From an uncultured Clostridia bacterium (GTDB lineage: Bacteria; Bacillota; Clostridia; TANB77; CAG-508), in NCBI GenBank assembly GCA_944392455.1, contig CALXWP010000007.1, forward strand, positions 43,559 through 107,558: a DNA stretch of 64,000 nucleotides, given 5' to 3'. Positions 38,435 through 57,034 of this stretch are shown here, in pieces. The notes beneath the pieces were generated by a model. It was not told the origin of the DNA. It made no database searches and saw only the letters and a list, made by a program, of their open reading frames with translations. Position 1 is the stretch's first letter, and each line of letters begins with the position of its first letter. The position numbers and the translations under genes are program-made.

Positions 38435-38508
38435 TGGAGGCGACACCCGGATTTGAACCGGGGATCAGAGTTTTGCAGACTCGTGCCTTACCACTTGGCT
38501 ATATCGCC
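38435..38508 (-). tRNA. tRNA-Cys (GCA)
   Basis: Reverse complement GGCGATATAGCCAAGTGGTAAGGCACGAGTCTGCAAAACTCTGATCCCCGGTTCAAATCCGGGTGTCGCCTCCA forms a cloverleaf. Anticodon loop CTGCAAA. CCA is encoded. Confidence 0.9.
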
Positions 38509-38591
38509 ATATACTATAATATATGCTTATAAAAATAAAAAATTACAAATTAAATTAAATTTTATAAAAAATAAAAAAGCAGTAGTAAAAT

Positions 38592-38665
38592 TGGAGGCGA
38601 CACCCGGATTCGAACCGGGGATCAGAGTTTTGCAGACTCGTGCCTTACCACTTGGCTATATCGCC
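38592..38665 (-). tRNA. tRNA-Cys (GCA), second copy
   Basis: Identical to the first copy except one T-loop base. Confidence 0.9.
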
Positions 38666-38685
38666 ATATACTACTGCTTTTTTTG

Positions 38686-38761
<76 letters not shown>

Positions 38762-40089: not shown

Positions 40090-41274
40090 TCAAATTATTT
40101 TTATATTTTGTATTAATACCATAAATTCAGTTAAATAATCTCTTATTTCTTTTTTTCTTATTTCTTCTTTATTATATATTTCCAATGTAGATATATTTTC
40201 ACCATCAACTAATACTTCTAAGGTTCCAATTATCTCATTTTGTTTTATTGGTGCTTTTAAACTATACAATATATCTGTTTTTATATCTATTTTATTTATA
40301 TCTGTTTTATTTATTATCATATTTTCAAAATTCATTTCTTCTAAAAGCAATTCTACCGAATTTTTGCTTCCTTTTTCCACAAATATTCTACCTGTATTAA
40401 TCTTCTTCCACTTTTCAAATTCTTCTTCTATAATTTCTTTTATATTAACTAACTCATAATTTTTTTCAACATATTCAATTAATTTTTTTGTATCAGTTGT
40501 TCTTAAATTATTAGTATCAGCTCCTATTATCACTGTAATTATATCCATATCATTCTTTTCCCACGCTGTGACCAAACATCTTCCTGCACCATTTGTAAAT
40601 CCAGTCTTCACTCCATAAACCCCAGAGACACTATTTAATAACTTGTTTGTATTGTTTATTTGTTTTAAATTTCCATTAATGCTTATAGTTGTATTGCTAG
40701 TAGATACAATTTTTTTAAAAGTTTCATTTTTTAATGCATAATCTGTAATTTTTGCAAGTTCATGTGCTGTAGTATAATGCCCTTCATTATCTAATCCATG
40801 AGGAACTACAAAATGTGAATTTGTTAATCCAAGTTCTTCTGCTTTATTATTCATCATGTCTGCAAAATTTTGAATGCTCCCTCCTACGTAAATTGCTAAA
40901 GCAGAAGCTGCATCATTTCCAGATCTTAGCATTAATCCATATAATAAATCATTTATTGTTACTTTATCATCTTTTTTTAGTCCTAGTCTCGATCCACCAA
41001 TTGACGCGGACTTTGAATCTATTGTAACAATATCTTTTAAATTTGTATTTTCTAGCACTACAATTGCTGTCATTATTTTTGTTGTTGAAGCCATTGGTGT
41101 TTGTTTGTCTCCATTTTTTTCATATAATACTCTGCCTGATGCTCTATCATATATAAGTGCAATTCTTGCATTTAGCTCTAATTCTTCAACTTCACTATTA
41201 TCTGCAAATACTGGAATTGTAAAAGAAACTAATAATATGAATACAATAAAAAAAATTAACATCTTTCTTTTCAT
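40090..41274 (-). CDS. D-alanyl-D-alanine carboxypeptidase (serine-type, PBP5/DacB family)
   Basis: 394 aa. Signal peptide, SxxK (ASTTKIMTA), SGN (RSGNDAA), KTG (VKTGFT) motifs, C-terminal PBP5-like domain. Confidence 0.85.
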   Translation of the reverse strand: MKRKMLIFFIVFILLVSFTIPVFADNSEVEELELNARIALIYDRASGRVLYEKNGDKQTPMASTTKIMTAIVVLENTNLKDIVTIDSKSASIGGSRLGLKKDDKVTINDLLYGLMLRSGNDAASALAIYVGGSIQNFADMMNNKAEELGLTNSHFVVPHGLDNEGHYTTAHELAKITDYALKNETFKKIVSTSNTTISINGNLKQINNTNKLLNSVSGVYGVKTGFTNGAGRCLVTAWEKNDMDIITVIIGADTNNLRTTDTKKLIEYVEKNYELVNIKEIIEEEFEKWKKINTGRIFVEKGSKNSVELLLEEMNFENMIINKTDINKIDIKTDILYSLKAPIKQNEIIGTLEVLVDGENISTLEIYNKEEIRKKEIRDYLTEFMVLIQNIKII

Positions 41275-41328: not shown

Positions 41329-42696
41329 CTAATAACCTCTTTCTGTTCTTTGAGGAGCTCCATATTCTTCTGCAATTTCATCATGAATTGCTTCGATTTT
41401 TTCATCAGGAGTTTTTCCTCCTCTTTCATTATATCTTCGTACAAAATCATCAACATTAGAATGATCTTTTTCAGCTTCTTTTCTTAACGTTGTTTCTGAT
41501 CCATCTTCTAATACTATTATGTCATCTGCTGTTAATTGGTCATTACCTGCTGTATCATCCATATTTCTTAATTCTGTCTCTCCATCTCTTTCTATTTCTT
41601 CCTCTGATCTATCCAATTCATCTTCTATTTCTGTATTTTTAGTTTTATCCATTACCTCTCTAACTTCTCTAGTAGTTGGTCTTTGATTTTTTGTTTCGAT
41701 TGGTGCTGATAAATACCTTTCATCTTTATCTTTACTTAGATCTGCTCTTACATAATCAACTTCTAAAGTTCCATATTGTCCTACTCTAACTGAAAGCATT
41801 TCTTCTTGTCCATTTACTTTGCTTCTTCCATTAATTCTTACCATTCCTGCTACTTGTTCTTCTTGTACCACACTTCCATCTCTACTATTTATTGAAGTTA
41901 CAGTTTGCCCTGTTGTTGTTCCTTCTATATTTTGTAAACTATCTATAGTATGTACATTCCCATCTTTATCTAACCCAACAAATGAAAACCTACCATTTTT
42001 CCCCTTCGAATGATCAGAAAATACAACATTAACTTTAACAATTCCTTTTTCTTTTATTTCAGGAATCATATCTGCTAATGTCTCTGTTTGAGTAACTTTT
42101 GCATTTGGATCAATTTCCTGTTTTTCAGCTATCTTATCAAATTGGAGTTTTTGATTAGCTTTCATTGTAGAATATGCTTGGATATCTTCGGTTTCTAATA
42201 TTTTTGACATTTTATCCAATTCCTTATTTGATTGTTTTTCATCCAGTTCCTCTTTTGTTAAAACTAAATCTTCTTTTCCTAATTCTTCTGGAAGCTCAAA
42301 TTCAGCTTCATCTAAAGTTAATGTATCAAAATATTCTTTATTTACTTTTTCTAAATCCTCTAAAAATTCATGGTCAAATGTAACCTCTCCCATTTCGTTT
42401 ACAGTTGCTATTAATTTATTGTCTTTATCATATATTTCATAAGCTATTTTTTCCTGTTGGTCTTCATCTTCTCTAGATTTTGGTTTTTCTTGCTTTTTTT
42501 CGCTATCTTTGAGTTTAACAATATATGCATCATTTATAGCTAAGCCCGATCCTTTAAATTCAAAATCTCTATAATATCCAATATTATCTACTTCTTGATT
42601 TCTTGCTTCTAATTTTTCTGATATTTCTGCACGAAGATTTAACATATTATTAGTTACTTCATTTCTTTTCTTATCTTTCATATCTTCATCTCCCAA
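41329..42696 (-). CDS. Hypothetical acidic, highly charged soluble protein (last gene of the T4SS-like module)
   Basis: 455 aa. No TM segment, D/E/K-rich, no recognisable motifs. Confidence 0.4.
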   Translation of the reverse strand: MGDEDMKDKKRNEVTNNMLNLRAEISEKLEARNQEVDNIGYYRDFEFKGSGLAINDAYIVKLKDSEKKQEKPKSREDEDQQEKIAYEIYDKDNKLIATVNEMGEVTFDHEFLEDLEKVNKEYFDTLTLDEAEFELPEELGKEDLVLTKEELDEKQSNKELDKMSKILETEDIQAYSTMKANQKLQFDKIAEKQEIDPNAKVTQTETLADMIPEIKEKGIVKVNVVFSDHSKGKNGRFSFVGLDKDGNVHTIDSLQNIEGTTTGQTVTSINSRDGSVVQEEQVAGMVRINGRSKVNGQEEMLSVRVGQYGTLEVDYVRADLSKDKDERYLSAPIETKNQRPTTREVREVMDKTKNTEIEDELDRSEEEIERDGETELRNMDDTAGNDQLTADDIIVLEDGSETTLRKEAEKDHSNVDDFVRRYNERGGKTPDEKIEAIHDEIAEEYGAPQRTERGY

Positions 42697-42790
42697 TATT
42701 CTTATATTAATATTATACTTTAAATATCTATTTTTTTCAACAATATAGAATAAAGCAAATACTATAGTTAGTATTTGCTTTATTTTTAGC

Positions 42791-44155
42791 TTACTCTACA
42801 TTAAATGACATTGTAAAATTTGTTCCTTCTCCTAGCTTAACTATAAATGTTTTTGTTATAGCTTGGCTGTTTGCATTATTTTTATCTGTAAATTTCGCAT
42901 CAAATATATATAGATCTCCGCTGTTTTGATAATTAGAAAATTCTACATTGTTAGATGTATAGAATGTATTTTTTACATATGTTTCAAAATCAGCTTCTGT
43001 AGCAAAGTTATTTTGCCTAAATGTTGCATCTAATTTATTATATACATATGTATAATCTCCATCATTTATTGCATCTACAATTTTTTGAGAATTTAATCCA
43101 GCCTTTTCAGCATCATTTGAACTATTATATTCTTCAAGAAAATCAGGCAAATCTATTGTATATGTATCTAAAACTACATCATAATTTGTAATATTAGTTT
43201 CTGTGAAAATATAATATTTACCATATTGATCAATACATATATACTCTTTCTTTCCATCTATTGCATTTACTTTATATCCTTGAATACTTGCAGTTTCAAT
43301 ATTTAACTTATTATCATTTACATATTGTAAAAAGTTCTCATAACTTCCAAATTTAGCATCCCTATATTCTTGATTTAATAAATTGTATGCATCTTCTGTA
43401 TGTTGCGTCATTTTTTCTCTATATTCAGAAAAATATTGTTTTGTAATATACTCTTCTGTTGCAGAAACATCTAGGAAGGTATTATAATCGTTTACTTCAA
43501 TATTTCCAGAATTTATATTTATGGCATCATAACTCATATTTTCATTATAATTATATTTTTCTAAAAAATCTTCTAGAAATATAGAATAAGTATTATTAGT
43601 ATAGTCTATTTTTATTAATAAATTAAATGGTTTATTATTTAGATTTGCTGTAACAAATGCTATTTTTATATTACTGCTTATATCATATGTTAAAACATTT
43701 ACTAAATTTAAATCATAAGAAACAGTTGCTTGAAAGTTTCCATTTTGGCTATATTCTTTTTGTTTTTCTATTATCATATTATTTTCTATTGCTAAATCAG
43801 AAATATATTGTGTATCTAATATATTCTTTATTGCCTCTGTTCCTTGTCGTTCTGATTGTGTTTTTGCATCTTCTAGTGAAATACCAGCTTTTACAATATC
43901 AACATATGAGTCACCATTTATTTGTTTTACATATACTAAATAATTATTCAAAATTTCCTTGATTGTATAATATGTTTTATAATCACTTACAACTGAAAAT
44001 CCCACATTTTCGCTACTTTGTGTATTTGTTGCGTTTTCAGCATTTTCTCCATCTTCTTGTGCATTCCCTCTTGTATTAAATATGATAACTGCAGCTATTA
44101 TTATAATTACAAGAAGAATAGTTAATAATATTATTATATTTTTTAATTTTTTCAT
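42791..44155 (-). CDS. Membrane-anchored extracytoplasmic protein (possible TcpC/VirB8-like)
   Basis: 454 aa. Single N-terminal TM, N/Y-rich ectodomain. Assignment rests on position in the module only. Confidence 0.35.
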   Translation of the reverse strand: MKKLKNIIILLTILLVIIIIAAVIIFNTRGNAQEDGENAENATNTQSSENVGFSVVSDYKTYYTIKEILNNYLVYVKQINGDSYVDIVKAGISLEDAKTQSERQGTEAIKNILDTQYISDLAIENNMIIEKQKEYSQNGNFQATVSYDLNLVNVLTYDISSNIKIAFVTANLNNKPFNLLIKIDYTNNTYSIFLEDFLEKYNYNENMSYDAININSGNIEVNDYNTFLDVSATEEYITKQYFSEYREKMTQHTEDAYNLLNQEYRDAKFGSYENFLQYVNDNKLNIETASIQGYKVNAIDGKKEYICIDQYGKYYIFTETNITNYDVVLDTYTIDLPDFLEEYNSSNDAEKAGLNSQKIVDAINDGDYTYVYNKLDATFRQNNFATEADFETYVKNTFYTSNNVEFSNYQNSGDLYIFDAKFTDKNNANSQAITKTFIVKLGEGTNFTMSFNVE

Positions 44156-44199
44156 TATTTCCTCCTAGTCTGTTTTTTAGCTTTTGCTATTATTCTATA

Positions 44200-47100
44200 T
44201 TAATGATTGAAATATGAGAAATGCATATAGTCTTTTAAACTGGTCCAATCTCCTCCCCAGTAAAATCCATGACGTTTCCATATATTTATAATTTCTTCAG
44301 TTACTGAATATGGATCTGATCCTGGACTATAATGACTTCCTACAACAGTACCATCAGCATATATACAGTAATTTTGCTCCGGGTTAACATCAAATGCATG
44401 TCCATAAGTATGAGCAGATTGTGGGAATGTTCCTCTAAATCCTGCATCTGATCCCCATTGCCTATAACTAATATCTCCACCAACAATCTTAAATCCTGCA
44501 TCTGCCATTTCTTTAAAGATTGCCTGTACTTCTGTCTTTAATTTTCTATGCATTGTTACATTCATTGTTTGACGATTTCCATTTGCATCTAGGTATTCTA
44601 CTGGAAATGTTTCTAAATATTGATTATTTTCTGCTTCTGAAGTAGGAACTCCATTACCATCATAAAGCCAATCAATTCTCGCCTGCTCTCCTTCTATACT
44701 TGCTGCTTCTCCTAATTGTGCACTTCCTGAAGTATGATTATCTTCCCATGCTTGATACCATTTTTTAGCATTATCATATCTTGCTGCAGTTATATCTTTT
44801 GATGCATTAAAGTTATTACTACTACTAAAGAATACTTCATAATATCTTCCAAAGTACCATGTAGCATATTCTAGATCTGTTTCGCTTGTTGAATTCATTA
44901 AAACATCTTTTACATCACTATAGCTTCCTTCTAATTCTTGCCATATAAATTCACATTGTGTTTCTACATCTGTCCAGTCCGTTCCTTTAGAATTTGCTAG
45001 ATTTTGTAGATTCTGGAATCTATCTGATATTGCCCATTGACATAAACCATTATGTGTGCCGTTTGTTGCTGCTGGATCAAAACTACTTTCTGCTTCTATA
45101 TTTCCCATGATAGCTGCTACTCCTGCAGGTGGCATACCTTTTGCTAAGAAGAAATCAAATATTTGTCCTTGAACTCCATCTATTCCACTTGATGTTCCAT
45201 AGCTTCCGTTTAAAGAACTAAAGTTAGCTGGATCAAATACCTTATCAAAATCAAATGAATCTATTCCATCAAACTCTCTTCCTGTTGCACAATAAATCAA
45301 ATATTTAGTTAAGTCAACCATATCAACTGTTTTTTCATTTTCTTCTAACATTTCGAATAGCCATTCTGGTGCACTTAATATATTATTTCTTGTGTCATAA
45401 TGTTCTCTATCTTGTAATAAAGTTACAAAATTCACTTCATCTGTTTTTGATTTTGGTTCATCTTTAGGCCTTATATCTTTAGGTGAAGAAGTATATTTTT
45501 GAGAATCTATTATATTATGATTTGTAACTGTTCCATCAAGTCCATAATAGTAATCTGTTAAACATGTTACTTCTGTATTTACTGTATCTTTATCACTATA
45601 GTTTGATCTTACACTTGCTTCATAATCAGCTGCTATTCCACACGGATCTTCATTTGGAACATCAGGCTCATCTGGACTATCCGGATATTCTCTATTTTGC
45701 TCTAGATCTGAAGGGTCTCCAGCTCCTGGATCTGTTGTTTCATTTGGTTGATATTCAAAATCTTGTGTATACTCTACAATCCATACATCAGCCTTTGTAA
45801 CACTTATATTTAGTGTATCTGTTGTATTTTTAGTCGTATGAACAATTGTATAATTTTTTAATATTTCTTCTGTACTTCCTTCTGTATTAGTTTCATCAAT
45901 ATTTCCACTTGTACTTGTTGACTCACCTGTATTTGGATCCACTTCAGTATCACTCCAACTACCTGTTACATGTATATCATGTGTATGTACTTTTGTTTTT
46001 CTAGTATATTCATATGTATCTATATCAGTTACTGTCTTTACATTATCATGAATAGTAATTTCTATTTCACTATCAAATACTAAATCAGCTATATCTAATC
46101 CAAAGTCTTTATCACGTCCCGCAACAATCCATGCCCATAAGTAGTCAAATGGCATTTGATATCCACTTACCATACTTTGATAATCTACTGTTTGTGCAGT
46201 CATAGTATAGGTAGTATTTGCTTCTATATAATCTGTTATTGGTTCTGGATCTACTGATCCATCTCCTCCTGCAACAGATTCTTCGAATCTCTCATTCCAT
46301 GTTGCTACTTTTACAACATATTTAGTTTTAGCATCTCCTCCACTGCCTATAGTTCCTGTACCACTACCCATTCCATTTTCATATTTGAATGATAATGGAT
46401 CTACTTTTACACCATTTTGTCTTGTTTCAAAGTGTACGTGTGGTCCTGTTGATGTTCCTGTATTACCAGATTTAGCAATTACTTGACCTTGTGTTACAGT
46501 ATCACCAACAGATACTAATAATTCACTGTTATGATAATATCTGGTTACAAATCCTCCGCCATGGTCAATTTCAATCATATTTCCTGCGGAACTGTCATAA
46601 CAAGATATTGTTACTGTTCCATCTTTAGCTGCATATACATTTGTTCCTGTTGGAACCCCTATATCTATAGCTCCATGGTCTGTTGATGCACCAGCTGTTG
46701 GAGCATCTCTTAATCCAAAGTAAGATGTTATAGTTGTTCCATCCGTTGGCCATTTTAATGTATCTGAACTTGAGCTTGAGCTATTATTATCATCGTCATC
46801 ATTATCATTATTTGTAGTATTATTATCATTAGCTTCTATTTCTGAGTCCACTCCAAAATTAGGGTTTTCAAAGTAACTTCCACCGTTAACTGCTTTTACA
46901 ACTCTTGAATTCCATTCTGGATGATTAGATGGATTTCCTGGATTCTCTTTAATGCCATACCATGAGTCTCTATCTACAACAAATTCTACAACACATTGAC
47001 CATCATTATGCCCCCATTGGTTACATCCTGGATCATTTTGATTTTTAATATCACCTATTATACATGGAAGAACTATTCCATTTTCTAGATAAAAATCAAT

Positions 47101-47964
47101 ATAATCTCCAACTTGTCCAAAAGTTGTAGTACATGCAATAACATAACGTCCATTTATAATTCCGAAACCTTCTTCATCAAAATTTTGACCTGCCATTTCT
47201 CTTAATCTATATTGATTTGAACTAGGAGCTGTTATTAACTGCCACCCCATATATGTATAATAATTACCAAAACCTTCTGGAATCTCTATTACTGTACCAG
47301 CTTCTATTGTACCTGCCATTATACTAGAAGTTGAATACTGTTTTTCTATAGTAAAGTGGCTTAATGCAGTATTTTTGTCTGCGTCAGATCCGCTTGCATT
47401 ATATGCTTCTATATATGAGTTAAAAACTTCAGGAGACACATAGGTCATTGTTGAAATTGTTCCATCTTCTTTTGCTCTTTTAAATTTGATAATACCTTGT
47501 GTTTCTGTAGAATCTACATCATTGTTTAAATTCTTCCAAAATTCTTCATCTAATGGTTCATCAATTTCATCTGCTGGTCTTGTATCAGGATAGTTTGTAA
47601 CTATTTCTGCGTTCATTAATCTTGCTAACTCTTGTGGATTGTCTAAATATTCATCAACTCTACTATTATTTTTTAACATTTCATCCCATAATTCCTGGGC
47701 TGACATTGTTGTTCTTATAGTTCCATCTTGATCAATAATTACATCCTGTGTATATTGTGTGACTGCATACATTACATTTCCCATGTCACCTTCTTTATAT
47801 GATCCATCTTGTCTAGTCATTTCATATCCTAAACCACACACAACAATAACTACTATTAAAACAATAGCCAATACTGGAGCTAATGCTCTCGCTGCTACTT
47901 TAGCTCCTTTTTTTAGTATTTTTTTCATTTGATATTTAACTTGTTCAAAACCATTTCCCATCAC
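44200..47964 (-). CDS. Tri-domain peptidoglycan hydrolase: TM anchor + M23 endopeptidase + lysozyme-like (phage-tail-lysozyme type) + M15 (VanY-like) peptidase
   Basis: 1254 aa. M23 motifs HGAIDIG...D and GNTGTSTGPHVHFE. Lysozyme-like block AAIMGNIEAESSFDP. M15 block SAHTYGHAFDVNP...GGDW...DYMHF. Confidence 0.75.
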   Translation of the reverse strand: MMGNGFEQVKYQMKKILKKGAKVAARALAPVLAIVLIVVIVVCGLGYEMTRQDGSYKEGDMGNVMYAVTQYTQDVIIDQDGTIRTTMSAQELWDEMLKNNSRVDEYLDNPQELARLMNAEIVTNYPDTRPADEIDEPLDEEFWKNLNNDVDSTETQGIIKFKRAKEDGTISTMTYVSPEVFNSYIEAYNASGSDADKNTALSHFTIEKQYSTSSIMAGTIEAGTVIEIPEGFGNYYTYMGWQLITAPSSNQYRLREMAGQNFDEEGFGIINGRYVIACTTTFGQVGDYIDFYLENGIVLPCIIGDIKNQNDPGCNQWGHNDGQCVVEFVVDRDSWYGIKENPGNPSNHPEWNSRVVKAVNGGSYFENPNFGVDSEIEANDNNTTNNDNDDDDNNSSSSSSDTLKWPTDGTTITSYFGLRDAPTAGASTDHGAIDIGVPTGTNVYAAKDGTVTISCYDSSAGNMIEIDHGGGFVTRYYHNSELLVSVGDTVTQGQVIAKSGNTGTSTGPHVHFETRQNGVKVDPLSFKYENGMGSGTGTIGSGGDAKTKYVVKVATWNERFEESVAGGDGSVDPEPITDYIEANTTYTMTAQTVDYQSMVSGYQMPFDYLWAWIVAGRDKDFGLDIADLVFDSEIEITIHDNVKTVTDIDTYEYTRKTKVHTHDIHVTGSWSDTEVDPNTGESTSTSGNIDETNTEGSTEEILKNYTIVHTTKNTTDTLNISVTKADVWIVEYTQDFEYQPNETTDPGAGDPSDLEQNREYPDSPDEPDVPNEDPCGIAADYEASVRSNYSDKDTVNTEVTCLTDYYYGLDGTVTNHNIIDSQKYTSSPKDIRPKDEPKSKTDEVNFVTLLQDREHYDTRNNILSAPEWLFEMLEENEKTVDMVDLTKYLIYCATGREFDGIDSFDFDKVFDPANFSSLNGSYGTSSGIDGVQGQIFDFFLAKGMPPAGVAAIMGNIEAESSFDPAATNGTHNGLCQWAISDRFQNLQNLANSKGTDWTDVETQCEFIWQELEGSYSDVKDVLMNSTSETDLEYATWYFGRYYEVFFSSSNNFNASKDITAARYDNAKKWYQAWEDNHTSGSAQLGEAASIEGEQARIDWLYDGNGVPTSEAENNQYLETFPVEYLDANGNRQTMNVTMHRKLKTEVQAIFKEMADAGFKIVGGDISYRQWGSDAGFRGTFPQSAHTYGHAFDVNPEQNYCIYADGTVVGSHYSPGSDPYSVTEEIINIWKRHGFYWGGDWTSLKDYMHFSYFNH

Positions 47965-48093
47965 AAACTCCTTTTATTTATCCATTTATTATCAAAAATT
48001 TTTTATGCATATTTTATATATTATACTACTTTTTTCAACATTTTTCAATTGTAAACTACTTTGGTTCTATTGATCTTTTAACTACGTATAATT

Positions 48094-49050
48094 TTAGTTC
48101 AATGGTATTTCAAGTCTTTCATAATTATAGTTATAAAGTATGTCATAATTTGGTGCAATTTTTAAAAATACTATTTTATTTATAACCTTTTCTGAACTAT
48201 ATTTATTATAATACTTTATAGTAATTTCTTTAGTTTCATTTTGGCTTAATGTTAATTCTGGTTCACTTAATTCTTGAGAATATGCACCATACTGTATACC
48301 ATTTTCATCTTCTAAGTACATAGAATCAGTATATTCTCTATCATCTATAATAATTTCATCACTTGTCTTATTTGTTACACTAAATGTATATGTTTGATAA
48401 TCCATATATGTATCACTTCTTAATACCGTCATGCTTATTAAGTCATTTTCTCTTGTTTTATTTATTTCTTCTCTTCCTAAATAACTATTAATATTTAACT
48501 TATATTGTCCATCATCAGTTTCTATTACCCTTATATAATCTTGAATTACATTATCTTCCGAATAAACTCCTGTTGCTAAGAAATCTTCTGTAAATTCTAC
48601 TTTATATATATTTGCAAGCCAGTTTTCTACTGAAACTTTTCTTATATTTCCATTAAAAACCTTATCATAATAATTTGTAGTAAAAATTTCAACAGTATTA
48701 TACATTTCCTCTTTACATTCATCTGATAGCATATTATATGCTTCATTTATATTTTTTGCATTACAATATTCTGTAAATTGTTCTATAATTCCTGCCATAC
48801 TTACTTGTTTACTTGTAAGTTCTTCTCCTGAAATTACAGAATCCGCTGATTCCATTGTTATAGTATTAAAATTATTATTTATTGTACCTGTCACGCTAAA
48901 TAACCTATCGCCACTTTCATCATCATTATTGCTATGTTTCATTACATAAACTAAAATGATATTTATAAGTACTATGACAAGTGCAAAAAATAGTATTAAT
49001 AATATTTTTGGTTTATTCCTTATATACCACTCCGCAATTTTTTTTCTCAT
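48094..49050 (-). CDS. Hypothetical membrane-anchored protein (T4SS-like module)
   Basis: 318 aa. N-terminal TM. No recognisable motifs. Confidence 0.4.
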   Translation of the reverse strand: MRKKIAEWYIRNKPKILLILFFALVIVLINIILVYVMKHSNNDDESGDRLFSVTGTINNNFNTITMESADSVISGEELTSKQVSMAGIIEQFTEYCNAKNINEAYNMLSDECKEEMYNTVEIFTTNYYDKVFNGNIRKVSVENWLANIYKVEFTEDFLATGVYSEDNVIQDYIRVIETDDGQYKLNINSYLGREEINKTRENDLISMTVLRSDTYMDYQTYTFSVTNKTSDEIIIDDREYTDSMYLEDENGIQYGAYSQELSEPELTLSQNETKEITIKYYNKYSSEKVINKIVFLKIAPNYDILYNYNYERLEIPLN

Positions 49051-49140
49051 TTTTTTCTCCTTTAATCTTTATTTTTTAAAATAGAGCAGAAAATTTATTT
49101 TCTGCTCTTCTTTGATGTTTTATTTAGATATTAGCAATTA

Positions 49141-51975
49141 TTATATTGCACCTGTAATCTCCCTTACTCCATCAACATATTTCTTAACATCTTGTGGACT
49201 TAATCCTTTTTCTCCTAATCTAGACTCTAAGTCTTTAATTTTCTTGTTATCGTTTCCTACTTCACTTGCAAGGCCTGCAAGTAATACTCTTTCTTTACTA
49301 GCTCTATCATTTCCAAAGCCTTCTGCTTTCATTGCTTTTATAATCATCTCATCATCGGTTATACCATTTGCCCTATATTCTTGGGCTTCTTTCATAACTT
49401 TTTTGATATCTCCTTTTGGAATTTCTAATTTATCAGCATATAATTTTTGTCTATCCTTATCTTTCATAGCAGCTTTATCTTCTAAGTCTCTTTGTCTTTG
49501 TTTTTCAGCTTCTTCACCTTTGGTAGCGATAGTATATGTACTTGCAGCACTAGAAGCTGCTTCTTTTACAAAATCATCAGCACTTCCTACGGCTCCTAAT
49601 GCTCCACTTCCTGCAGCCCATCCGGCTGCAGCACCTGCTGCTCCGTATCTCAATATATTATTATCATCTCCTGAAGCTAAACCTCCTGCTACACCTAAAG
49701 TCGCTGCTGTCGCTGCTAAAGTTCCTTTTACTGCTGCTTTTCCAACTCTAGGTGCTGCATATTTTAATCCTTGCATTCCGACAGCTCCAACACCTTTTGC
49801 AATATTTCCAGCAGCTTTTGCTCCTTGTACCATATGTCCACCTAATGTCCTAGCTGAGTTCCTAATTGGTTTTGGTATTGATGTTCTAATTTTGTTTGCT
49901 CCACTTTGTACTGTATTTGCCATAGCTCTTACAGATTTAGCGCCTGCAGCTCCCAAATCTCTAGCAACCCTTACTGGTACAGTATTAGGTGCCCAATTAG
50001 CAAATCTATGTGCTACTGCTCTAGATTTATCTGAAACTTTATTCATTCTTGCTTGCAATCTGCTTCCTTGATAGCTATCACGTAAATATGTTCCTACGCC
50101 TCTTGTATCAGTTTCTCTAATTCTAGCCATTCCTTCTGCAATTTCTCTTTCTCTCCATTCTCTTTGCTCTTCTGCATTCATATCTTCTGGATATGTTGAA
50201 TTTATTCTATCTCTTAAAGCTTGTTGCTCTGCTGCAATTCTATCTCCTTCATCAGATCTTCCACTTGCATTTCTTTGTCTTTGATCTGCCAAACTATTTT
50301 GAGCAGATAATTGTCTTTGACCATTTGCCCCTTGTGAATCTGCATCTTGACCATTTTGATTTCTTCCGGTTATTTGATTCATTAAGTCTCTAGTCTTAAT
50401 TTTTCTAGCTGATGCTGCCGCACCAGAACCAGCTCCTCCACTTCCAGCTTTTCCACCAGCATTTCCTTTTTTGCTTCCAATACCTGCTATCTTCTTTATT
50501 TGACTTATACCAGCCATTGCTAAAGCTCCACCTATAGCTGATCCATTTGCATCTAATGTTGACGCTTTATCAAATCCAAAGAACCTTCTCATTATTTTTT
50601 CTGCTTGGAATATAAATCCTATTGCAACAATAGCATATATCATATTTACAGTTCCATCTCCACCGTCTCTTGCTGCTATGCTAATCGCAGATCCAACTAA
50701 CATTGTGTATAAAATCAAATGGAGTGGTTGTATTAATAAATTAAATACATATTCTTTTAACCACATATTAAATGCTTGTGCATTTCCATCCCCCATTTTA
50801 TCTAATGGATATGTCATAGCAACCAATGGTGCTATCATTGTTAAAAATGCTAACATTATTAATCTCTTTAGGTATACTACTAAAAATGCTATTGTATAAA
50901 TTACTAATATTAGGAATAAAACTGTATATCCTAATTGTCTTAATAATTCATTATCTTCTGTCGCACCTTCATCTAATTGTAATTGAATTCTAACTTGTCC
51001 CATTAGATTTGTAGGCCAATAATATTCGCTACTATCTTCATTTTCTATTAATCCATTTTCCACAAAGAATTCTGACGCATCTACTACGGATGCCTCTTTT
51101 TCTCCACTTTCTTCACTTATAACTTCTACTCTGTAATCTTCCTCTTTTAAATTAGGTAATGTAATAATTGTAGGTGTATTTAGTTCATTTATACCTTCTG
51201 AAATTGCTTCTACAACAGTAGTAGCAAAAGCCATTATATAATGCATAAAAAATAATATACACATTGCTACAATCCAGCTAAATAATTTTTCTTTATATTT
51301 TGCTTTGTCTTGTGCTGCACTGCTTGTAACTATTCTAATACCTATATATAGTAATACTGATAGTAAAACAACTAATGCAAAGTTTCTAAGTGTTAAATAC
51401 CAGCTTGAAATAGTACTTTGTAATTGAGAGGCTGTTGACACTTGTTCTGTTGATGTATCTCCATTTATTGCAGTAATTTGTTCATATTCATTAGGATTAA
51501 AGAAGTTTACATCCAAAAGTGCTATTTTATTTGCAAATATTTCTTCAGGACTTATAACATATATTGGTAAATAAACTGTTGGTGGCAACATATCTGCTGT
51601 TATTTTATATGCTGCATATGCTCCAATACCAGCTGCAACTAATGCAACTAAACTAAGTCCACCTGTAATAATTGCTGTACCTACAACTATTGCTATACCA
51701 ACTATCCATGCAACAACTGCGGGAAGTGTATCTCCTATTTCAGTGGATACTTTCGTCAGAGAACTTTCCATTCCAAATAAAATTCCCTGAATTAAATTCA
51801 TTATACCATCACCAATAGCTAATAATAAGTCAACTATTGGTGAAAGTAATGTTCCTCCTATTACTTCTGCAACGCCTGCCTGACTGATAGTTGGAGCTGA
51901 AAAGTTAAATAGTATTACTATTACTAAGATTATTGCTATCTTTAGTATCATGCTTTTACTTTTTAATATTTCCAT
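49141..51975 (-). CDS. VirB6-like polytopic membrane protein (TcpH/ConG/Orf15 class) with ~450-aa Ala/Gly/Arg-rich C-terminal extension
   Basis: 944 aa. Signal/TM then more than six TM helices in the first ~490 aa. The C-terminal half is hydrophilic and low-complexity (GNAGGKAGSGGAGSGAAASARK...). Sits immediately after the VirB4 gene. Confidence 0.5.
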   Translation of the reverse strand: MEILKSKSMILKIAIILVIVILFNFSAPTISQAGVAEVIGGTLLSPIVDLLLAIGDGIMNLIQGILFGMESSLTKVSTEIGDTLPAVVAWIVGIAIVVGTAIITGGLSLVALVAAGIGAYAAYKITADMLPPTVYLPIYVISPEEIFANKIALLDVNFFNPNEYEQITAINGDTSTEQVSTASQLQSTISSWYLTLRNFALVVLLSVLLYIGIRIVTSSAAQDKAKYKEKLFSWIVAMCILFFMHYIMAFATTVVEAISEGINELNTPTIITLPNLKEEDYRVEVISEESGEKEASVVDASEFFVENGLIENEDSSEYYWPTNLMGQVRIQLQLDEGATEDNELLRQLGYTVLFLILVIYTIAFLVVYLKRLIMLAFLTMIAPLVAMTYPLDKMGDGNAQAFNMWLKEYVFNLLIQPLHLILYTMLVGSAISIAARDGGDGTVNMIYAIVAIGFIFQAEKIMRRFFGFDKASTLDANGSAIGGALAMAGISQIKKIAGIGSKKGNAGGKAGSGGAGSGAAASARKIKTRDLMNQITGRNQNGQDADSQGANGQRQLSAQNSLADQRQRNASGRSDEGDRIAAEQQALRDRINSTYPEDMNAEEQREWREREIAEGMARIRETDTRGVGTYLRDSYQGSRLQARMNKVSDKSRAVAHRFANWAPNTVPVRVARDLGAAGAKSVRAMANTVQSGANKIRTSIPKPIRNSARTLGGHMVQGAKAAGNIAKGVGAVGMQGLKYAAPRVGKAAVKGTLAATAATLGVAGGLASGDDNNILRYGAAGAAAGWAAGSGALGAVGSADDFVKEAASSAASTYTIATKGEEAEKQRQRDLEDKAAMKDKDRQKLYADKLEIPKGDIKKVMKEAQEYRANGITDDEMIIKAMKAEGFGNDRASKERVLLAGLASEVGNDNKKIKDLESRLGEKGLSPQDVKKYVDGVREITGAI

Positions 51976-51984
51976 ATTCTCCCC

Positions 51985-54030
51985 CTAATACTTATTGTCC
52001 GTTCTTTTTCCTTTTTGTACTAATTTATTTAAGTTTGTTTCAACGAATTCAAATTCTTTTGCCGTAGGTCTTATTTGAATAATTGCACTATCTCCTCCTA
52101 CTTTTAATAATCCTTCTCCTTTTAAACAAGTTACTAGGAAATTAGCTTCTCCTTCACTTAATTTAAATACCTCTTTTAAGTATTGTATTTCAGCTTTATC
52201 TTGTGCTAAAAATAGTTTTGTATCTGATGAAGTCAAAACTGCTTGTGCTTCTGGTTTTTCATAGAAATCTTGGAATCTTTGTGAAATAATTGCAAGTGAT
52301 ACATTTCTTTTTCTAGCACGTCTTGCCATAGTATTTAAGAAATCTACGGCTTCTGGGAATGGAAGTAACATCCACGCCTCATCAACTAAAACTCTTTTCT
52401 TAGCAGCTTTTGTTCTATCTTCACTATTCTTTTTAACATATTTTTCCCATATCCACTCTAGCAATATTTGTTGTGCAAGTGGTCTTGCAAATTTTTCTTC
52501 AAGTTGTGATATGTCAAGATTGATGAATAAAGCTCCCTCTAATAAATCAAATGTAGACTGTCCATCAAAATATGCCATTTGTCCATCATATTCTCTTATG
52601 TATTGTTTCATAACTTTTAATAGATAACTATAATGGAAATTATAATCAGGGTTTTTGTTGTCATCTGCTTTCTTTTGTATTCTTCTATACCAAGAACCTA
52701 TAGTTGGCATATCCTTTTTCTTTCTACCTAACATATTACCAGATAAGCTTCCTCCTGTTTGAGCTGCTTCAAATAAACTGTTAGGATCACTATTTATTCC
52801 ATGTGCAGCATATTCTTCTGCAACAGATTCTGCAATAATTTGTTTTGTAAGCTCATTAACTTCTTCACTTCTTGTACTACCTTTAGCCATTGTAAGTAAA
52901 GCTTGTGTAACGTCCTCTACTTTGTTTTCTACATTCAATACTAATTTATCTCTACCTGTAATTTCATCTTTCACAATTTCTGTTTCAACATCAAATATAT
53001 TTATAACTGTTTTTGATGTTGGACTTATAACGACATTAATTCCTCCTAAACTTTCTGCCACTATGCTATATTCACCTTCTGCATCCAAAGCTAAACTTTG
53101 TACCCCCATTAGAACTGCAGACCTTGAAATTAATGTTTTCATTGTAACTGACTTTCCTGCTCCAGACTTAGCAAATATAACCATATTATAATTTGTAAGT
53201 GAGCTATGAAAATTATCAAAAAGCACTGGTACTCCAGTTTGTTTATTTATTCCTAAAGGTACTCCTGTAGAATGTCCAACTTCTGATGTTGTAAATGGAA
53301 ATACTGTTCCCATTGATCTTCTATCAAATGTATGTGTTTTCTTTATTTTATCATCCATTAATGGTAAATTTGATTTAAATGCTTCTTCTTGCATTCCCCA
53401 TGCACTCTTGATAGAAACTAATGATTTAGACATTTCTGTTGATAAAAGTTTTGTATATCTTTCTAGGTCTTCTAAATTATATGCAAATAAAGTTGAAACA
53501 ATTGAAGCTTCATATAATTTGTTAAATCCTGCTGCAATTTCATCTCTTAGCTCTTCTGCTTCTAATCTTTTTTGTCCTAGATCTGATTCTCTATTGATAT
53601 TTCCTCTATCAGCTGCAACTATTCTTTCTGTTTCTATTTCATTAATTACTCTGTTTAATTCATTTTGAGATCTTGATTCTGGAATTGGATTAATATATAT
53701 TGATGTATTAATATCTCCAAATAAGTACATATCTCTAAATAGTTCTGGGAATGTACACATTCTTGGAAGTGTTGATACAAAGAAGCTTCTTGCATATCTA
53801 GTTACATTAGAGATTATCTCTAAATGGTCTATGTTAGTTGCGTCAATTCCAGAAGGAGCTATAAGCTCTTTTATTGTTTTTTTCTTTAAAATTTGAAATT
53901 CATCTGGTTTTGTATAATCATTAAGCTGTCTTCGTTGTTCTTCTTCTCTTTGTTTTTTCTTTGCCATCTTCTTTTGTACCTCCTTCTTTACTTTGTTTTT
54001 TCTTTGCATTTCTCTCTGCTTTTTCTTCAT
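51985..54030 (-). CDS. VirB4-family type IV secretion ATPase (TcpF/ConE/TraE-like)
   Basis: 681 aa. Walker A FAKSGAGKSVTMKT, Walker B RVLVDEAWMLL, N-terminal region TRYARSFFVSTLP typical of Gram-positive VirB4. Confidence 0.85.
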   Translation of the reverse strand: MKKKQREMQRKNKVKKEVQKKMAKKKQREEEQRRQLNDYTKPDEFQILKKKTIKELIAPSGIDATNIDHLEIISNVTRYARSFFVSTLPRMCTFPELFRDMYLFGDINTSIYINPIPESRSQNELNRVINEIETERIVAADRGNINRESDLGQKRLEAEELRDEIAAGFNKLYEASIVSTLFAYNLEDLERYTKLLSTEMSKSLVSIKSAWGMQEEAFKSNLPLMDDKIKKTHTFDRRSMGTVFPFTTSEVGHSTGVPLGINKQTGVPVLFDNFHSSLTNYNMVIFAKSGAGKSVTMKTLISRSAVLMGVQSLALDAEGEYSIVAESLGGINVVISPTSKTVINIFDVETEIVKDEITGRDKLVLNVENKVEDVTQALLTMAKGSTRSEEVNELTKQIIAESVAEEYAAHGINSDPNSLFEAAQTGGSLSGNMLGRKKKDMPTIGSWYRRIQKKADDNKNPDYNFHYSYLLKVMKQYIREYDGQMAYFDGQSTFDLLEGALFINLDISQLEEKFARPLAQQILLEWIWEKYVKKNSEDRTKAAKKRVLVDEAWMLLPFPEAVDFLNTMARRARKRNVSLAIISQRFQDFYEKPEAQAVLTSSDTKLFLAQDKAEIQYLKEVFKLSEGEANFLVTCLKGEGLLKVGGDSAIIQIRPTAKEFEFVETNLNKLVQKGKRTDNKY

Positions 54031-55162
54031 TTATACTATTTATTGCATCTTGTGCAACATCATAACCAACAGCATCAGTATTTTGTTCTATAATTAATTT
54101 AGCTAAATTATCTATTAGATTATCCATGTTGTTTTCTTTCTTCTGTAAAGCTTTTTCTTTTGCTGATTGAGCTTCAATTACTTTTTCATTGGCTTTATTA
54201 AATGCTTCTTCTTCTATCTTCTCGTCTAATATTCTCATCTTCTTATCTAATACATCTTCTCCAGTTGAATATAGTTCGTCATATCCTGCTCTTAATGCTT
54301 TATCTAACCCGAAGACTTCTTGTTCATCTCTGTTATATGCTACATAAAGTAATTCAACTAATTCTTCTGAAATAAGTATTCTTCCATTAACTTCGCATCC
54401 TGCTAAAGTTCTTATAATTGATTGACATCTTGTATATAATTCTGAGAAAGCCATATTTGTTATTTCTTCTTTATCGAATTCATCAGTTCCTGAATCTTCA
54501 GGTATGTAAGGAACAATTATATAATAGTTCTGATTTAAAACATTTTTATTTAAACTCATCTTTTCTGTTGAATATATAATATCTTTTCCATACTCTGTAA
54601 GATTCCTTTGTTTTGTAAGTTCATAATACACTTGATCAAGCTGTTCTTTTGTGTAATTTCCTGAACTCTTCATTTCTCTATATCTCATTTCTTGTTTATT
54701 ATAATCATCTTCTATTTGTTTTACTCTATCTCTATAACCCTGTAAACTATTTTCTAGATTGATTGTTCTAGTTTGGACATATAACTGTACTGGATGTCTA
54801 ATAGTATTTAAGAATTGTATAAATCCTTCTTCAACAGCATTTTTTTCAACTTCTGACATTAAATCATAGTTTATTCCTTGGCATTCAATAACCATTATAT
54901 ATTTAAATCCATCTTTTTGTATTATCATATTATCTTCAATTCTATCAAACTCCATAAAGTCCATTACAGATTGAACTGCAAATGTTTTTGATTTTGGGAT
55001 TTCTTTTTCTTCTTCTCCAGTAGAAATTCTATCTGATTTTCCAACTTTCTTTTCTTTTTTGTTTTTTGTAGAAAAATATACTACTACAAGGGCTACTAAT
55101 AATATAATAATTAAAATTATTATAAACATTAAAATCATTCTTAAAGTTTCCATACTATCCAT
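53921..55162 (-). CDS. Hypothetical T4SS-associated membrane protein (N-terminal TM, coiled-coil, basic tail)
   Basis: 413 aa. Overlaps the annotated VirB4 start by up to 110 nt. Faint resemblance to a VirB4 N-terminal-domain segment (IIQKDGFKYIMVIECQGINYDLMSEVE). Confidence 0.4.
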   Translation of the reverse strand: MDSMETLRMILMFIIILIIILLVALVVVYFSTKNKKEKKVGKSDRISTGEEEKEIPKSKTFAVQSVMDFMEFDRIEDNMIIQKDGFKYIMVIECQGINYDLMSEVEKNAVEEGFIQFLNTIRHPVQLYVQTRTINLENSLQGYRDRVKQIEDDYNKQEMRYREMKSSGNYTKEQLDQVYYELTKQRNLTEYGKDIIYSTEKMSLNKNVLNQNYYIIVPYIPEDSGTDEFDKEEITNMAFSELYTRCQSIIRTLAGCEVNGRILISEELVELLYVAYNRDEQEVFGLDKALRAGYDELYSTGEDVLDKKMRILDEKIEEEAFNKANEKVIEAQSAKEKALQKKENNMDNLIDNLAKLIIEQNTDAVGYDVAQDAINSINEEKAERNAKKKQSKEGGTKEDGKEKTKRRRTTKTA

Positions 55163-55532
55163 TCTTTTCTTCCTCCTTATAAATATATATTTTTCTTCCT
55201 TTTGTTCTAAATTTTATGGCTCTTTTTATTATATCATCTATATTTTCTCCACCTGTTTTTTGTGCAAATTTAAATTTTCCTAAATTTGGCATTTTTAAAG
55301 TTCCGATTACAAATCCAATTAAAGCAAAAATTACTGTTATTACTATACCTACCATTGTTAGGCCAAATGCAGAAAATAAGAAATAAAATATAAGTCCACA
55401 AGATCCTCCAATTACAGTATACATCATACTTTTACCTGTGAAAATAAACAAAATTCTACCCTCACCTTTTACACTTCTTGGCAAGTTATATGTCCCCATA
55501 TATGCTTCCTCCTTCGTTAATCTTTTATCCAT
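55155..55532 (-). CDS. VirB3/TcpE-like small two-TM protein
   Basis: 125 aa. Two adjacent TM helices after a short cytoplasmic N-terminus. Directly upstream of the VirB4 region. Confidence 0.5.
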   Translation of the reverse strand: MDKRLTKEEAYMGTYNLPRSVKGEGRILFIFTGKSMMYTVIGGSCGLIFYFLFSAFGLTMVGIVITVIFALIGFVIGTLKMPNLGKFKFAQKTGGENIDDIIKRAIKFRTKGRKIYIYKEEEKNG

Positions 55533-55579
55533 ATTAATATAATTTATATTATAGCAGATTTTTTCCTAAAAAGATACAA

Positions 55580-55616
55580 AAAAAACAAAAAAAGTGCATT
55601 TGTAATGCACTTTTAA
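55580..55616 (-). terminator. Intrinsic terminator after the pilin gene array
   Basis: On the minus strand: aaagtgcattacaaatgcacttt, then a long T-run. Confidence 0.55.
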
Positions 55617-55656
55617 TATATTTGTAATATTATTGTAATGTTTCTGTAATATTATG

Positions 55657-56022
55657 TTATGCTGTTATACTTTGAGACATTGCTATTACTGCTTTGGCTA
55701 TAGCAGATGCACCAAATATAATTACAGCACCAACTAAATATGGGATCATAGTCTTCTTGTATTCAGCTTTTTCTGCAGCACTACCCATCATGTATTTAAT
55801 ACCTAATACTAATAATACCACTACTGCTACTATAATACCAACTGTTGTAATAATACTAATAATATTTTTACCAACATTTTGTATACCTGTTGTATTTGCA
55901 TTTCCTCCTGTCATTAATGAATCAACTAATCCTGAATCAGTTGCATATGCAGGTACTGCTAATACTGCAAGTAGCATTATTGATAATAAAATTATTGATA
56001 ATATTTTTACTGACTTTTTCAT
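55657..56022 (-). CDS. VirB2/TrbC-like pilin paralog 3
   Basis: 121 aa. Signal peptide (AYA-TD), TM1, charged loop GIKYMMGSAAEKAEYKK, TM2 YLVGAVIIFGASAIAKAV. Compare A. tumefaciens VirB2 ...ISWMFGRAS...IVIMFGASFLG. Confidence 0.6.
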   Translation of the reverse strand: MKKSVKILSIILLSIMLLAVLAVPAYATDSGLVDSLMTGGNANTTGIQNVGKNIISIITTVGIIVAVVVLLVLGIKYMMGSAAEKAEYKKTMIPYLVGAVIIFGASAIAKAVIAMSQSITA

Positions 56023-56106
56023 AATTTCCTCCTTTTATGTATATTAAAAATATATGTAATATCTCTTTTTGAGATAATGTTAAAATCATTAATAATATAT
56101 GTTTTG

Positions 56107-56496: not shown

Positions 56497-56515
56497 CTTT
56501 ACTCCTTTTTAATAC

Positions 56516-57030: not shown

Positions 57031-57034
57031 TTGT

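Follow-up and report, generated by a model that had tools for sequence, protein, structure and literature searches.

A membrane-anchored hydrolase with three predicted peptidoglycan-cleaving modules, encoded in a chromosomal type IV secretion-like gene cluster of a Clostridia bacterium

Results

A three-module hydrolase gene in a type IV secretion-like cluster

We analyzed a 64,000-nucleotide stretch of DNA (the window) from an uncultured gut Clostridia bacterium, focusing on a large open reading frame (ORF) that a preliminary description, made from the sequence alone, had presented as a membrane-anchored enzyme associated with a type IV secretion system (T4SS) and combining three peptidoglycan-cleaving domains. 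The ORF, at 44200..47964 on the minus strand, was confirmed and comprises 1254 codons counted from GTG. An ATG at codon 2 (47961) is the start of a 100% identical database protein (P0001) of 1253 amino acids (aa), and translation of the hydrolase probably begins there, giving 1253 aa. The T4SS association also held, as the neighboring genes encode VirB2-like pilins, PrgI, VirB4 and a VirB6-like protein. Along the protein, the order of elements is transmembrane (TM) helix, N1, N2, linker, M23, MID, PF18013 and M15_4. Module coordinates below are aa of the hydrolase, and Pfam hits are from hmmscan with the gathering score as the threshold. The features are as follows.

44200..47964, minus strand: whole hydrolase ORF, 1254 codons from GTG; the identical P0001 has 1253 aa
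47824..47961, minus strand: cytoplasmic tail (aa 1-25, K/R-rich) and sole TM helix (aa ~26-44), predicted from hydropathy
47341..47784, minus strand: N1 domain, aa ~60-207, alpha/beta, fixed part of the family chassis (AlphaFold2, pLDDT ~90)
46846..47313, minus strand: N2 domain, aa ~217-372, beta-rich, with near-invariant D/C/H/E/W residues (AlphaFold2)
46759..46830, minus strand: Asn/Asp/Ser-rich low-complexity linker, aa 378-401 (composition)
46396..46680, minus strand: Peptidase_M23 core (LytM-type Zn endopeptidase), aa 428-522 (Pfam PF01551, E 2.6e-32)
45217..46329, minus strand: MID chassis region, aa ~545-915 (AlphaFold2, pLDDT 88.9)
44752..45171, minus strand: PF18013 phage-tail/gp13-type lysozyme (Phage_lysozyme2), aa 931-1070 (Pfam, E 6.1e-29)
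44203..44634, minus strand: C-terminal VanY/LAS-type Zn peptidase, Pfam M15_4 core aa 1180-1250, domain ~aa 1110-1253 (Pfam, E 3e-19)

The membrane anchor of the preliminary description corresponds to a single TM helix. A Kyte-Doolittle scan found only one segment above 1.6, with a peak of 3.15 at aa 26-44, and the preceding aa 1-25 contain 7 K/R residues against 1 D/E. Such a K/R-rich tail ahead of a single hydrophobic segment fits an N-in, C-out anchor that leaves the bulk of the hydrolase outside the cell. Cys42 was considered as a lipobox cysteine and rejected: VVC-G departs from the lipobox pattern and the Cys is absent in the homolog at the related locus L001, so the segment was treated as a TM anchor.

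The catalytic modules carry intact motifs

A domain scan, proposed in the preliminary description as the check on its claim, placed all three modules above the gathering score. The M23 module scored 111.3 bits against a cutoff of 28.7, and the signature reported earlier (HxxxD ... HVHFE) was found as HGAID at 429 (HxxxD) and PHVHFE at 507 (HxH). The residues H429, D433, H477, H508 and H510, with metal-binding and catalytic roles assigned as in LytM, are all present and are kept in 114-119 of 120 relatives. Relatives of the module in the PDB include ShyA, LytM and lysostaphin.

The PF18013 module (101.4 bits, cutoff 28.2) contains the GNIEAES block at 953, with E958 as the predicted catalytic Glu. 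A profile of the module built from 13 diverse relatives matched phi29 gp13 (3CSR/3CSQ) over the whole domain with an E value of 2.5e-11, and E958 aligned with gp13 E45 in GNMQSES, in agreement with the earlier assignment of this block to phage tail-tip lysozymes. PF18013 has been described as a structural homolog of gp13 (PMC10194240). Muramidase rather than lytic transglycosylase chemistry has been demonstrated for PF18013 only in PrgK, by LC-MS (PMC11323569); by analogy, the hydrolase module is probably a muramidase. In about 29 of the 120 relatives, P0064 among them, GNIQEAS replaces GNIxxES, so that the Glu has moved by one position and Ala occupies the canonical Glu site; judged from the motif, this subgroup possibly represents inactive or altered lysozymes.

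The C-terminal VanY/M15 block was likewise borne out, as the M15_4 module (Pfam PF13539) scored 69.8 bits against a cutoff of 25. Its motifs are SAHTYGHAFD at 1182 and DYMH at 1244, with residues H1184, D1191, D1244 and H1247, and SxHxxGxAxD and DYxH align with those of the L-Ala-D-Glu peptidases Ply500 (2VO9) and LysB4 (6AKV). As to bond specificity (D-Ala-D-Ala carboxypeptidase or L-Ala-D-Glu endopeptidase), the Pfam name denotes a carboxypeptidase, and the nearest solved relatives are L-Ala-D-Glu peptidases. The module is scarce, occurring in 22 of 120 close relatives and in 1 of 37 distant representatives. NCBIfam and PHROGs concurred on the M23 and lysozyme modules; the PHROG matches, to endolysins, tape-measure proteins and a 'minor head protein', cover catalytic modules. 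As the motifs are intact in all three modules, the sequence gives no sign of a dead domain, and it is from the sequence that we infer the activity and bond specificity of each.

Two un-annotated regions, N2 and MID

About 750 residues of the hydrolase, for which the preliminary description gave no explanation, hold the chassis and N2. We modeled them with AlphaFold2 on a 73-sequence alignment (pLDDT 83.5 for aa 50-400 and 88.9 for aa 535-925). N1 was found in 119 of 120 relatives, is kept in distant representatives, and is the sole ectodomain part in a truncated duplicate at L001 (see below).

N2 had no Pfam match at E<=10 across 12 members and no PDB profile match. In a Foldseek search against the PDB, the best matches to its model were mostly of double-psi beta-barrel (DPBB) type, all weak (E >= 0.011, TM-score <= 0.2): kiwellin, expansin, PA4485, a designed DPBB, cerato-platanin and the p97 N-domain. 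The model thus suggests that N2 may be a DPBB. An assignment to the RlpA/MltA-3D DPBB lytic transglycosylases was rejected, as Pfam (12 members) and the PDB profile search were blank and hhalign against E. coli RlpA gave a probability of 0.15%. N2 shares 55% identity with a protein annotated as 'tail lysin' in Eggerthella phage LE1-1 (L005 3010-4179); the similarity falls in the N-terminal half of that phage protein, and its C-terminal half is NlpC/P60. It also exists as a stand-alone protein of 130-270 aa, and the gene for such a protein directly follows a CHAP gene at two loci with conjugation markers: L011 (5651-7555), which has relaxase, MobC, PrgI and VirB4 and where the CHAP gene is just 3' of VirB4, and L012 (6343-7468), which has a type IV coupling protein (T4CP). 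In characterized Gram-positive T4SS hydrolases, CHAP or NlpC/P60 is paired with a glycan-cleaving domain (PMC12102498, PMC12857230). Since N2 takes the place of the glycan-cleaving partner beside CHAP or NlpC/P60, we read it by analogy as what may be a fourth cell-wall-acting module, either glycan-binding or glycan-cleaving.

The low-complexity linker noted in the preliminary description is real (aa 378-401; NDNNTTNNDNDDDDNNSSSSSSDT), but it lies between N2 and M23 and does not separate the three catalytic modules from one another. M23 is instead separated from PF18013 by the structured MID of ~370 aa, and a stretch of ~40-110 aa precedes M15. The MID model contains beta strands of 43, 30 and 33 residues (model positions 98-140, 162-191 and 259-291), followed by a helical bundle. 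If these strand lengths are converted at ~3.3 Å per residue, MID would be ~10-14 nm long. Foldseek searches of the PDB and BFVD with the MID model returned no credible match (TM-score <= 0.15), and the MID chassis had no homolog in 72,556 PLSDB plasmids or 50,697 INPHARED phage records.

Lytic modules are exchanged on a conserved chassis

A search with the full-length hydrolase returned 497 proteins, and modules were mapped on the best 120 clusters (90% identity). Essentially every cluster has TM-N1 and MID. The N2-M23 ... PF18013 architecture accounts for 54 of the 120 clusters, and N2-M23 occurs without a match to the C-terminal modules of the window protein in another 32, where Pfam lists NlpC/P60, glucosaminidase, Amidase_5 or C39-like domains for some of the clusters and nothing for the rest. 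PF18013 is followed by M15, as in the window, in 19 clusters, and another module precedes M15 in three. The triple combination is therefore not exceptional, as it had been taken to be: it recurs in ~19 of the 120 closest clusters, and relatives also add an SGNH domain. P0008 and P0010 have a ~210-aa insertion between N2 and M23, where the window protein has its linker, and Pfam adds an SGNH esterase in these proteins; the order of the Pfam hits suggests that the SGNH domain fills the insertion. N2 and M23 are lacking from P0030, which has NlpC/P60, and from P0111, P0113, P0116 and P0118, which have SGNH. To judge from an aligned segment of P0030 and the unmatched interval, NlpC/P60 or SGNH would occupy the first, membrane-proximal slot in these proteins.

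A phmmer search with MID against 1.84 billion representatives found 819 proteins at E <= 1e-3 (counted at 50% identity), 518 of them at E <= 1e-10; they are 370-2139 aa long and the position of MID varies. A census of 37 diverse MID representatives gave the following modules on the chassis.

PF18013: 20 of 37
NlpC/P60: 13 of 37
M23: 12 of 37
SGNH (Lipase_GDSL_2): 9 of 37
CHAP: 8 of 37
C39-like: 4 of 37
M15_4, Amidase_5, YkuD and GH24: 1 of 37 each

With such varied modules on a constant chassis, the architecture of the window protein is one combination among those of a modular system, in which M15_4 is the rarest element. On these alignments, the family has a fixed chassis (TM, N1 and MID) with two slots in which lytic modules are exchanged.

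The cluster is chromosomal and has no relaxase nearby

The hydrolase gene lies within a T4SS-like cluster (41329-57623), of which the other genes are listed here in the order of transcription.

57093-57623, minus strand: 176-aa protein, no function assigned
55657-56893, minus strand: three TrbC/VirB2-like pilins (family scans)
55155-55532, minus strand: PrgI/VirB3-like protein (family scans)
53921-55162, minus strand: 413-aa TraC-like N-domain protein (NF045975 positions 54-246; PF26593 TraC-like in relatives)
51985-54030, minus strand: VirB4 ATPase, 681-aa ORF (best NCBIfam match CD1110-family VirB4, below cutoff)
49141-51975, minus strand: 944-aa multi-pass DUF8208/VirB6-like membrane protein (weak T4SS_pilin, TraJ and pLS20_p028 matches)
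48094-49050, minus strand: 318-aa protein, no function assigned
48020..48048, minus strand: promoter-like site TTGAAA-17-TATAAT (11/12) in the 129-nt gap 5' of the hydrolase gene, a consensus match only
42791-44155, minus strand: 454-aa single-pass membrane protein, directly 3' of the hydrolase gene (44-nt gap), the fastest-evolving gene of the cluster
42749..42784, minus strand: terminator-like hairpin immediately 3' of the 454-aa gene, with a 16 bp stem and a T-rich tail
41329-42696, minus strand: 455-aa protein, the last syntenic gene before dacA, 80% identical in L001 and L002

VirB4 looks split, as the ORF for its 413-aa N-part overlaps the 681-aa ATPase ORF by ~110 nt; database homologs of the ATPase are ~658 aa long, and the two-gene layout recurs in L002, L006 and L008. 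The 454-aa protein, which had neither a Pfam nor a PDB match, is probably a partner of the hydrolase. The 455-aa protein, without a family or PDB match, is missing from L003, L006 and L008. Promoter-like sites overall were not in excess of shuffled sequences, and 20 terminator-like sites were found against 3.8 expected. Bracketed by the promoter-like site and the hairpin, the hydrolase and 454-aa genes might form a two-gene unit, a suggestion that stands on the weak footing of consensus matches.

The cluster is chromosomal and is flanked by housekeeping genes, M16 peptidases upstream and dacA, cdd, PNP and UDG downstream. Elsewhere in the window are genes for signal peptidase, Pol III delta', Lgt, an oxoacid:ferredoxin oxidoreductase and two-component systems. 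The same gene order was found in L002 and L006-L009 and, in the closest genomes, which are metagenome-assembled genomes (MAGs) of uncultured Clostridia, it includes dacA and cdd; one of the closest Clostridia genomes is a complete chromosome of 1.70 Mb. The distant members P0108 and P0010 lie in the same cassette (pilins, PrgI, TraC-like, VirB4, DUF8208, a ~315-aa protein, hydrolase and a ~420-aa protein), with different host flanks.

No relaxase, coupling protein or integrase was found among ORFs of >=100 aa in the 64-kb window, the part of the genome that was searched, nor was a relaxase or T4CP seen in the flanks of the related loci, which were examined over 7-10 kb (10 kb for L006-L009). 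The signs of an integrative and conjugative element (relaxase, T4CP, integrase, flanking tRNA) were absent at the cluster. The tRNA genes of the window, a tandem pair of tRNA-Cys(GCA) and tRNA-Gly(GCC), lie only at 38435-38761 on the minus strand, beyond the syntenic dacA and cdd and with no integrase near. Scored as a conjugative element (MPF_FA / MPF_FATA, with linked relaxase and T4CP), the cluster was thus negative within the window and flanks.

The hydrolase diverges faster than housekeeping genes

We compared amino acid identities between the window and L002, using DacA (72%) and cdd (75%) as the housekeeping baseline. VirB4 is 96% identical, TraC-N and PrgI 87% each, the 455-aa protein 80%, DUF8208 63%, the hydrolase 61%, pilin1 50% and the 454-aa protein 41%. 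At distant loci VirB4 holds at 82-84%, whereas the hydrolase drops to 30-56% and DUF8208 to 33-40%; the best 120 database clusters of VirB4 are all >=92% identical. The conservation of VirB4 against the faster divergence of the hydrolase, DUF8208, pilin1 and the 454-aa protein indicates unusually strong constraint on the cytoplasmic motor, whereas the exposed parts diversify above the genome average.

At L001 (4416-6550), a 255-aa ORF corresponds to aa 1-212 of the hydrolase (TM and N1, 74% identity) and ends at the boundary of the first slot. Behind this truncated ORF come a second 454-like gene and the full hydrolase gene, in that order, an arrangement that fits either recombination at module borders or a MAG assembly artifact. 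As for features of polymorphic-toxin loci, variable modules and a fast-evolving adjacent gene were seen; the neighbor is the 454-aa membrane protein, to which no immunity role could be assigned.

Comparison with known wall-penetrating enzymes

The closest functional counterpart is PrgK of the Enterococcus faecalis plasmid pCF10. PrgK has three ectodomains, LytM, 'SLT' and CHAP, of which only the middle one is active, as a muramidase; LytM and CHAP down-regulate it, and PrgK binds PrgL (PMC11323569, PMC12857230). In our scan, the middle domain of PrgK was PF18013 (aa 544-719, E 2.6e-29) and CHAP was detected, with no Pfam M23 match for LytM at E<=0.01; the RefSeq name of PrgK (L010 15609-18224) is 'phage tail tip lysozyme'. 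The preliminary description had stated that T4SS hydrolases usually carry one or two catalytic domains. This leaves PrgK out of account, with its three ectodomains and an active one that is PF18013 (PMC11323569, PMC12857230), and the exceptional status of the window protein had accordingly been overstated.

Both proteins are TM-anchored, are encoded just 3' of PrgI and VirB4, and have the order M23, PF18013, peptidase. They differ in that LytM is degenerate and metal-free in PrgK whereas M23 is intact in the window protein, in that the third domain is CHAP in PrgK and M15_4 in the window protein, and in that the cytoplasmic N-domain of ~250 aa in PrgK compares with ~25 residues. N1, N2 and the ~370-aa MID have no counterpart in PrgK, which is encoded on a conjugative plasmid, whereas the window cluster is chromosomal without a relaxase or T4CP nearby. 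BLASTP aligned the two proteins in the lysozyme module only (22% identity, E 2e-5). By its sequence, the window protein would belong functionally to the PrgK/VirB1-like class (DELTA class) and is not a PrgK ortholog.

Other relatives share parts of the architecture. CwlT of ICEBs1 consists of a muramidase and NlpC/P60, and TcpG of pCW3 is likewise a two-domain T4SS hydrolase. TraG of pIP501 (SLT+CHAP) and Orf14 of Tn916 are further Gram-positive examples with two domains (PMC12857230, PMC12102498). Like the window protein, TraG, CwlT, Orf14 and TcpG are T4SS-linked and join a glycan-cleaving to a peptide-cleaving module, but they have fewer modules of other catalytic families and lack M23, M15_4 and the chassis. 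No sequence relationship to these four was detected, and the window scaffold has no plasmid homologs. The phi29 protein gp13 (3CSQ/3CSR) also combines a PF18013-type lysozyme with M23/LytM in one wall-penetrating protein (PMC10194240), but it is a soluble virion protein of 365 aa in which the lysozyme precedes M23 and which has no TM anchor, chassis or M15. Ply500 and LysB4 (2VO9, 6AKV) are the closest solved relatives of M15_4, with aligned Zn ligands and catalytic Asp, although the match is weak (E ~1e-4), spans only ~70 residues and does not allow transfer of the bond specificity.

The cluster as a whole resembles the T4SS of Patescibacteria (Saccharibacteria), which are likewise monoderm, chromosomal and relaxase-free, with a divergent array of VirB2-like pilins, PrgI/VirB3, VirB4 and an adjacent wall hydrolase (PMC12102498, PMC12857230). 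The window organism, however, is labeled as Clostridia, and the likeness is one of gene layout; a VirD4-like protein has been reported at the S. epibionticum locus, and none was seen in the window. The T4SS and adjacent peptidase and lysozyme genes of Patescibacteria are essential for epibiotic growth, and VirB2-like pilins have been reported to be absent from MPF_FATA systems (PMC12102498, PMC12857230).

Other wall and surface proteins of the window

Two giant paralogous surface proteins of 1947 and 1444 aa are encoded a few kb from the cluster (26842-32685 and 33022-37356, minus strand). In each, a thioester domain (TED) at the N-terminal end is combined with several DUF11 repeats and a SpaA-like domain; they are candidate covalent adhesins. 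The window encodes further wall enzymes: a GH25 muramidase with two LysM domains (62513-63544), an Amidase_3 protein (21261-21989) and the PBP5/DacA carboxypeptidase (40090-41274), the gene for which is directly 3' of the cluster and syntenic with it in L001 and L002. A 1750-aa protein (13031-18283, minus strand) with glucoamylase-like, GH94 supersandwich and GH94 catalytic domains is predicted to be a large glycan phosphorylase or a cyclic-glucan-synthase-like enzyme; the 964-aa ORF that follows its gene had no family match.

Discussion

We consider it likely that the hydrolase is the wall-breaching subunit, a functional VirB1/PrgK analog, of a chromosomal monoderm T4SS-like apparatus in a low-GC Clostridia bacterium, and that it opens the wall of its own producer. 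This interpretation builds on the observed domain identities, intact motifs, anchor, operon membership, conserved chassis and module swapping. The N-terminal TM helix would anchor the protein with the remainder outside the cell. In slot 1, close to the membrane, N2 would bind or cleave glycan and M23 would cut peptide cross-links. In slot 2, distal to MID, the PF18013 lysozyme would cut glycan strands by means of E958, and the M15_4 Zn peptidase would cleave stem peptides, either internally or at their end. MID itself may serve as a spacer or docking element. The combined cuts would perforate the thick Gram-positive wall locally, so that the channel and the VirB2-type pilus could pass. A T4SS role is supported by the retention of the same gene order at loci where VirB4 is 82-96% but the hydrolase only 30-61% identical, and it agrees with the finding that Gram-positive T4SS hydrolases are TM-anchored, multi-domain proteins, PrgK docking on PrgL (PMC11323569, PMC12857230).

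Several points weigh against this interpretation. LytM and CHAP of PrgK are inactive and regulatory (PMC11323569), so that the presence of a domain is no proof of its activity, and the activities that we propose for the modules are predictions from sequence. No relaxase or T4CP that would point to a cargo of the apparatus was found in the window or in the flanks of the related loci (7-10 kb). A VirB8/PrgL-like partner was not recognized by sequence among the neighbors (318-, 454- and 455-aa proteins; Pfam, NCBIfam and PDB phmmer). Finally, the hydrolase outpaces housekeeping genes and swaps modules, which would be unexpected for an enzyme cutting only its own, presumably stable, wall.

The enzyme might instead be an outward weapon or feeding tool, acting mainly on the wall of another cell, be it prey, host or mating partner, with which the relaxase-less T4SS makes contact. 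A MID stalk would then project slot 2 beyond the producer's own wall, module swapping would track the peptidoglycan chemotypes of targets, and the 454-aa neighbor would modulate or protect. Such a role would suit the chromosomal location of the cluster, its VirB2 pilin array and the lack of a relaxase, coupling protein or integrase close by, an organization that has been highlighted in Patescibacteria, where the T4SS and peptidase/lysozyme genes are essential for epibiosis (PMC12102498, PMC12857230). It would also suit the rapid evolution of the hydrolase and 454-aa genes beside a 96% conserved VirB4, the exchange of lytic cassettes, the truncated hydrolase and 454-aa copy of L001, which recall polymorphic-toxin loci, the two giant thioester-domain adhesins in the same window, and the small size, only 1.7 Mb, of the closest complete genome. 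We nonetheless regard it as unlikely: a TM helix anchors the protein in the producer, as in genuine conjugative hydrolases, and for PrgK-type enzymes the donor wall is already taken to be the target; a small gene with immunity-like features was not seen; surface proteins can evolve fast for many other reasons, for example under pressure from phages or host immunity; and the L001 duplication could be a MAG assembly artifact. A bolder version, for which we see a similarly small chance, takes the chassis family as the hallmark of a hitherto unrecognized T4SS of gut Clostridia with small genomes, non-conjugative and fixed in the chromosome, which would share with the essential Patescibacteria T4SS the VirB2 pilin array, the lack of a linked relaxase and an ultra-conserved VirB4. 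A fast-diversifying, swapping lytic 'warhead' (N2 and M23 proximal, PF18013 and M15 distal) on a ~10-nm beta stalk would then breach the wall of other bacteria for contact-dependent uptake, killing or epibiosis, and N2 would be a new family of glycan-cleaving DPBB enzymes that also occurs in phage tail lysins and conjugative elements.

It is also conceivable, though we hold it to be distinctly improbable, that the PF18013 lysozyme is the only catalytically relevant module and that M23, M15_4 and N2 are peptidoglycan-binding, regulatory or dimerization domains. This is the situation in PrgK, active only in PF18013/'SLT' and down-regulated by LytM and CHAP (PMC11323569), and PF18013 is the commonest module on the chassis, with 20 of 37 distant representatives. 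The M23 module of the window protein, however, scores 111 bits with five conserved residues, whereas PrgK LytM has no Pfam M23 match, and the Zn-binding and catalytic residues of M15 are complete. Moreover, 32 of 120 close relatives lack the PF18013 module of the window protein and retain M23 with other modules, which argues that M23 is not merely a regulator of PF18013. There is, lastly, very little chance that the hydrolase derives from a prophage, as a tail lysin or a piece of a tape-measure protein, or is a housekeeping autolysin, and stands beside the T4SS by accident. The PHROG matches to endolysins, tape-measure and 'minor head' proteins and the occurrence of N2 and PF18013 in phage tail lysins (PMC10194240) would speak for it. 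Against it, genes for phage structure, packaging or integration are missing from the window, none of the 50,697 phage and 72,556 plasmid records contains the chassis, synteny with PrgI, VirB4 and DUF8208 is strictly kept at every related locus examined, down to hydrolase identities of 30-44%, and an N-terminal TM anchor is foreign to tail lysins. We rejected a phage origin because the PHROG matches are limited to the catalytic modules, the chassis has no phage or plasmid homolog and the window has no phage genes.

New here are a conserved chassis that is without a fold match and carries swappable lytic cassettes; an un-annotated domain, N2, common to phage tail lysins and conjugative elements; and a chromosomal setting in which the T4SS combines an array of VirB2 pilins with the lack of a nearby relaxase, a layout that the literature consulted highlights for Patescibacteria only (PMC12102498, PMC12857230). 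Two un-annotated domain families, the MID chassis (819 representatives) and N2, are thereby defined. Gram-positive T4SSs have a thick wall to cross, and the organization and regulation of their hydrolases are known essentially from PrgK alone. The chassis family offers a natural experiment, with a fixed docking or spacer scaffold, interchangeable lytic modules and an M23 that is intact where that of PrgK is dead, and it could reveal the bond specificities that are required and the positions within the wall at which they operate. The context may outweigh the enzyme, since a Patescibacteria-like T4SS layout in Clostridia bears on the origin and role of that system.

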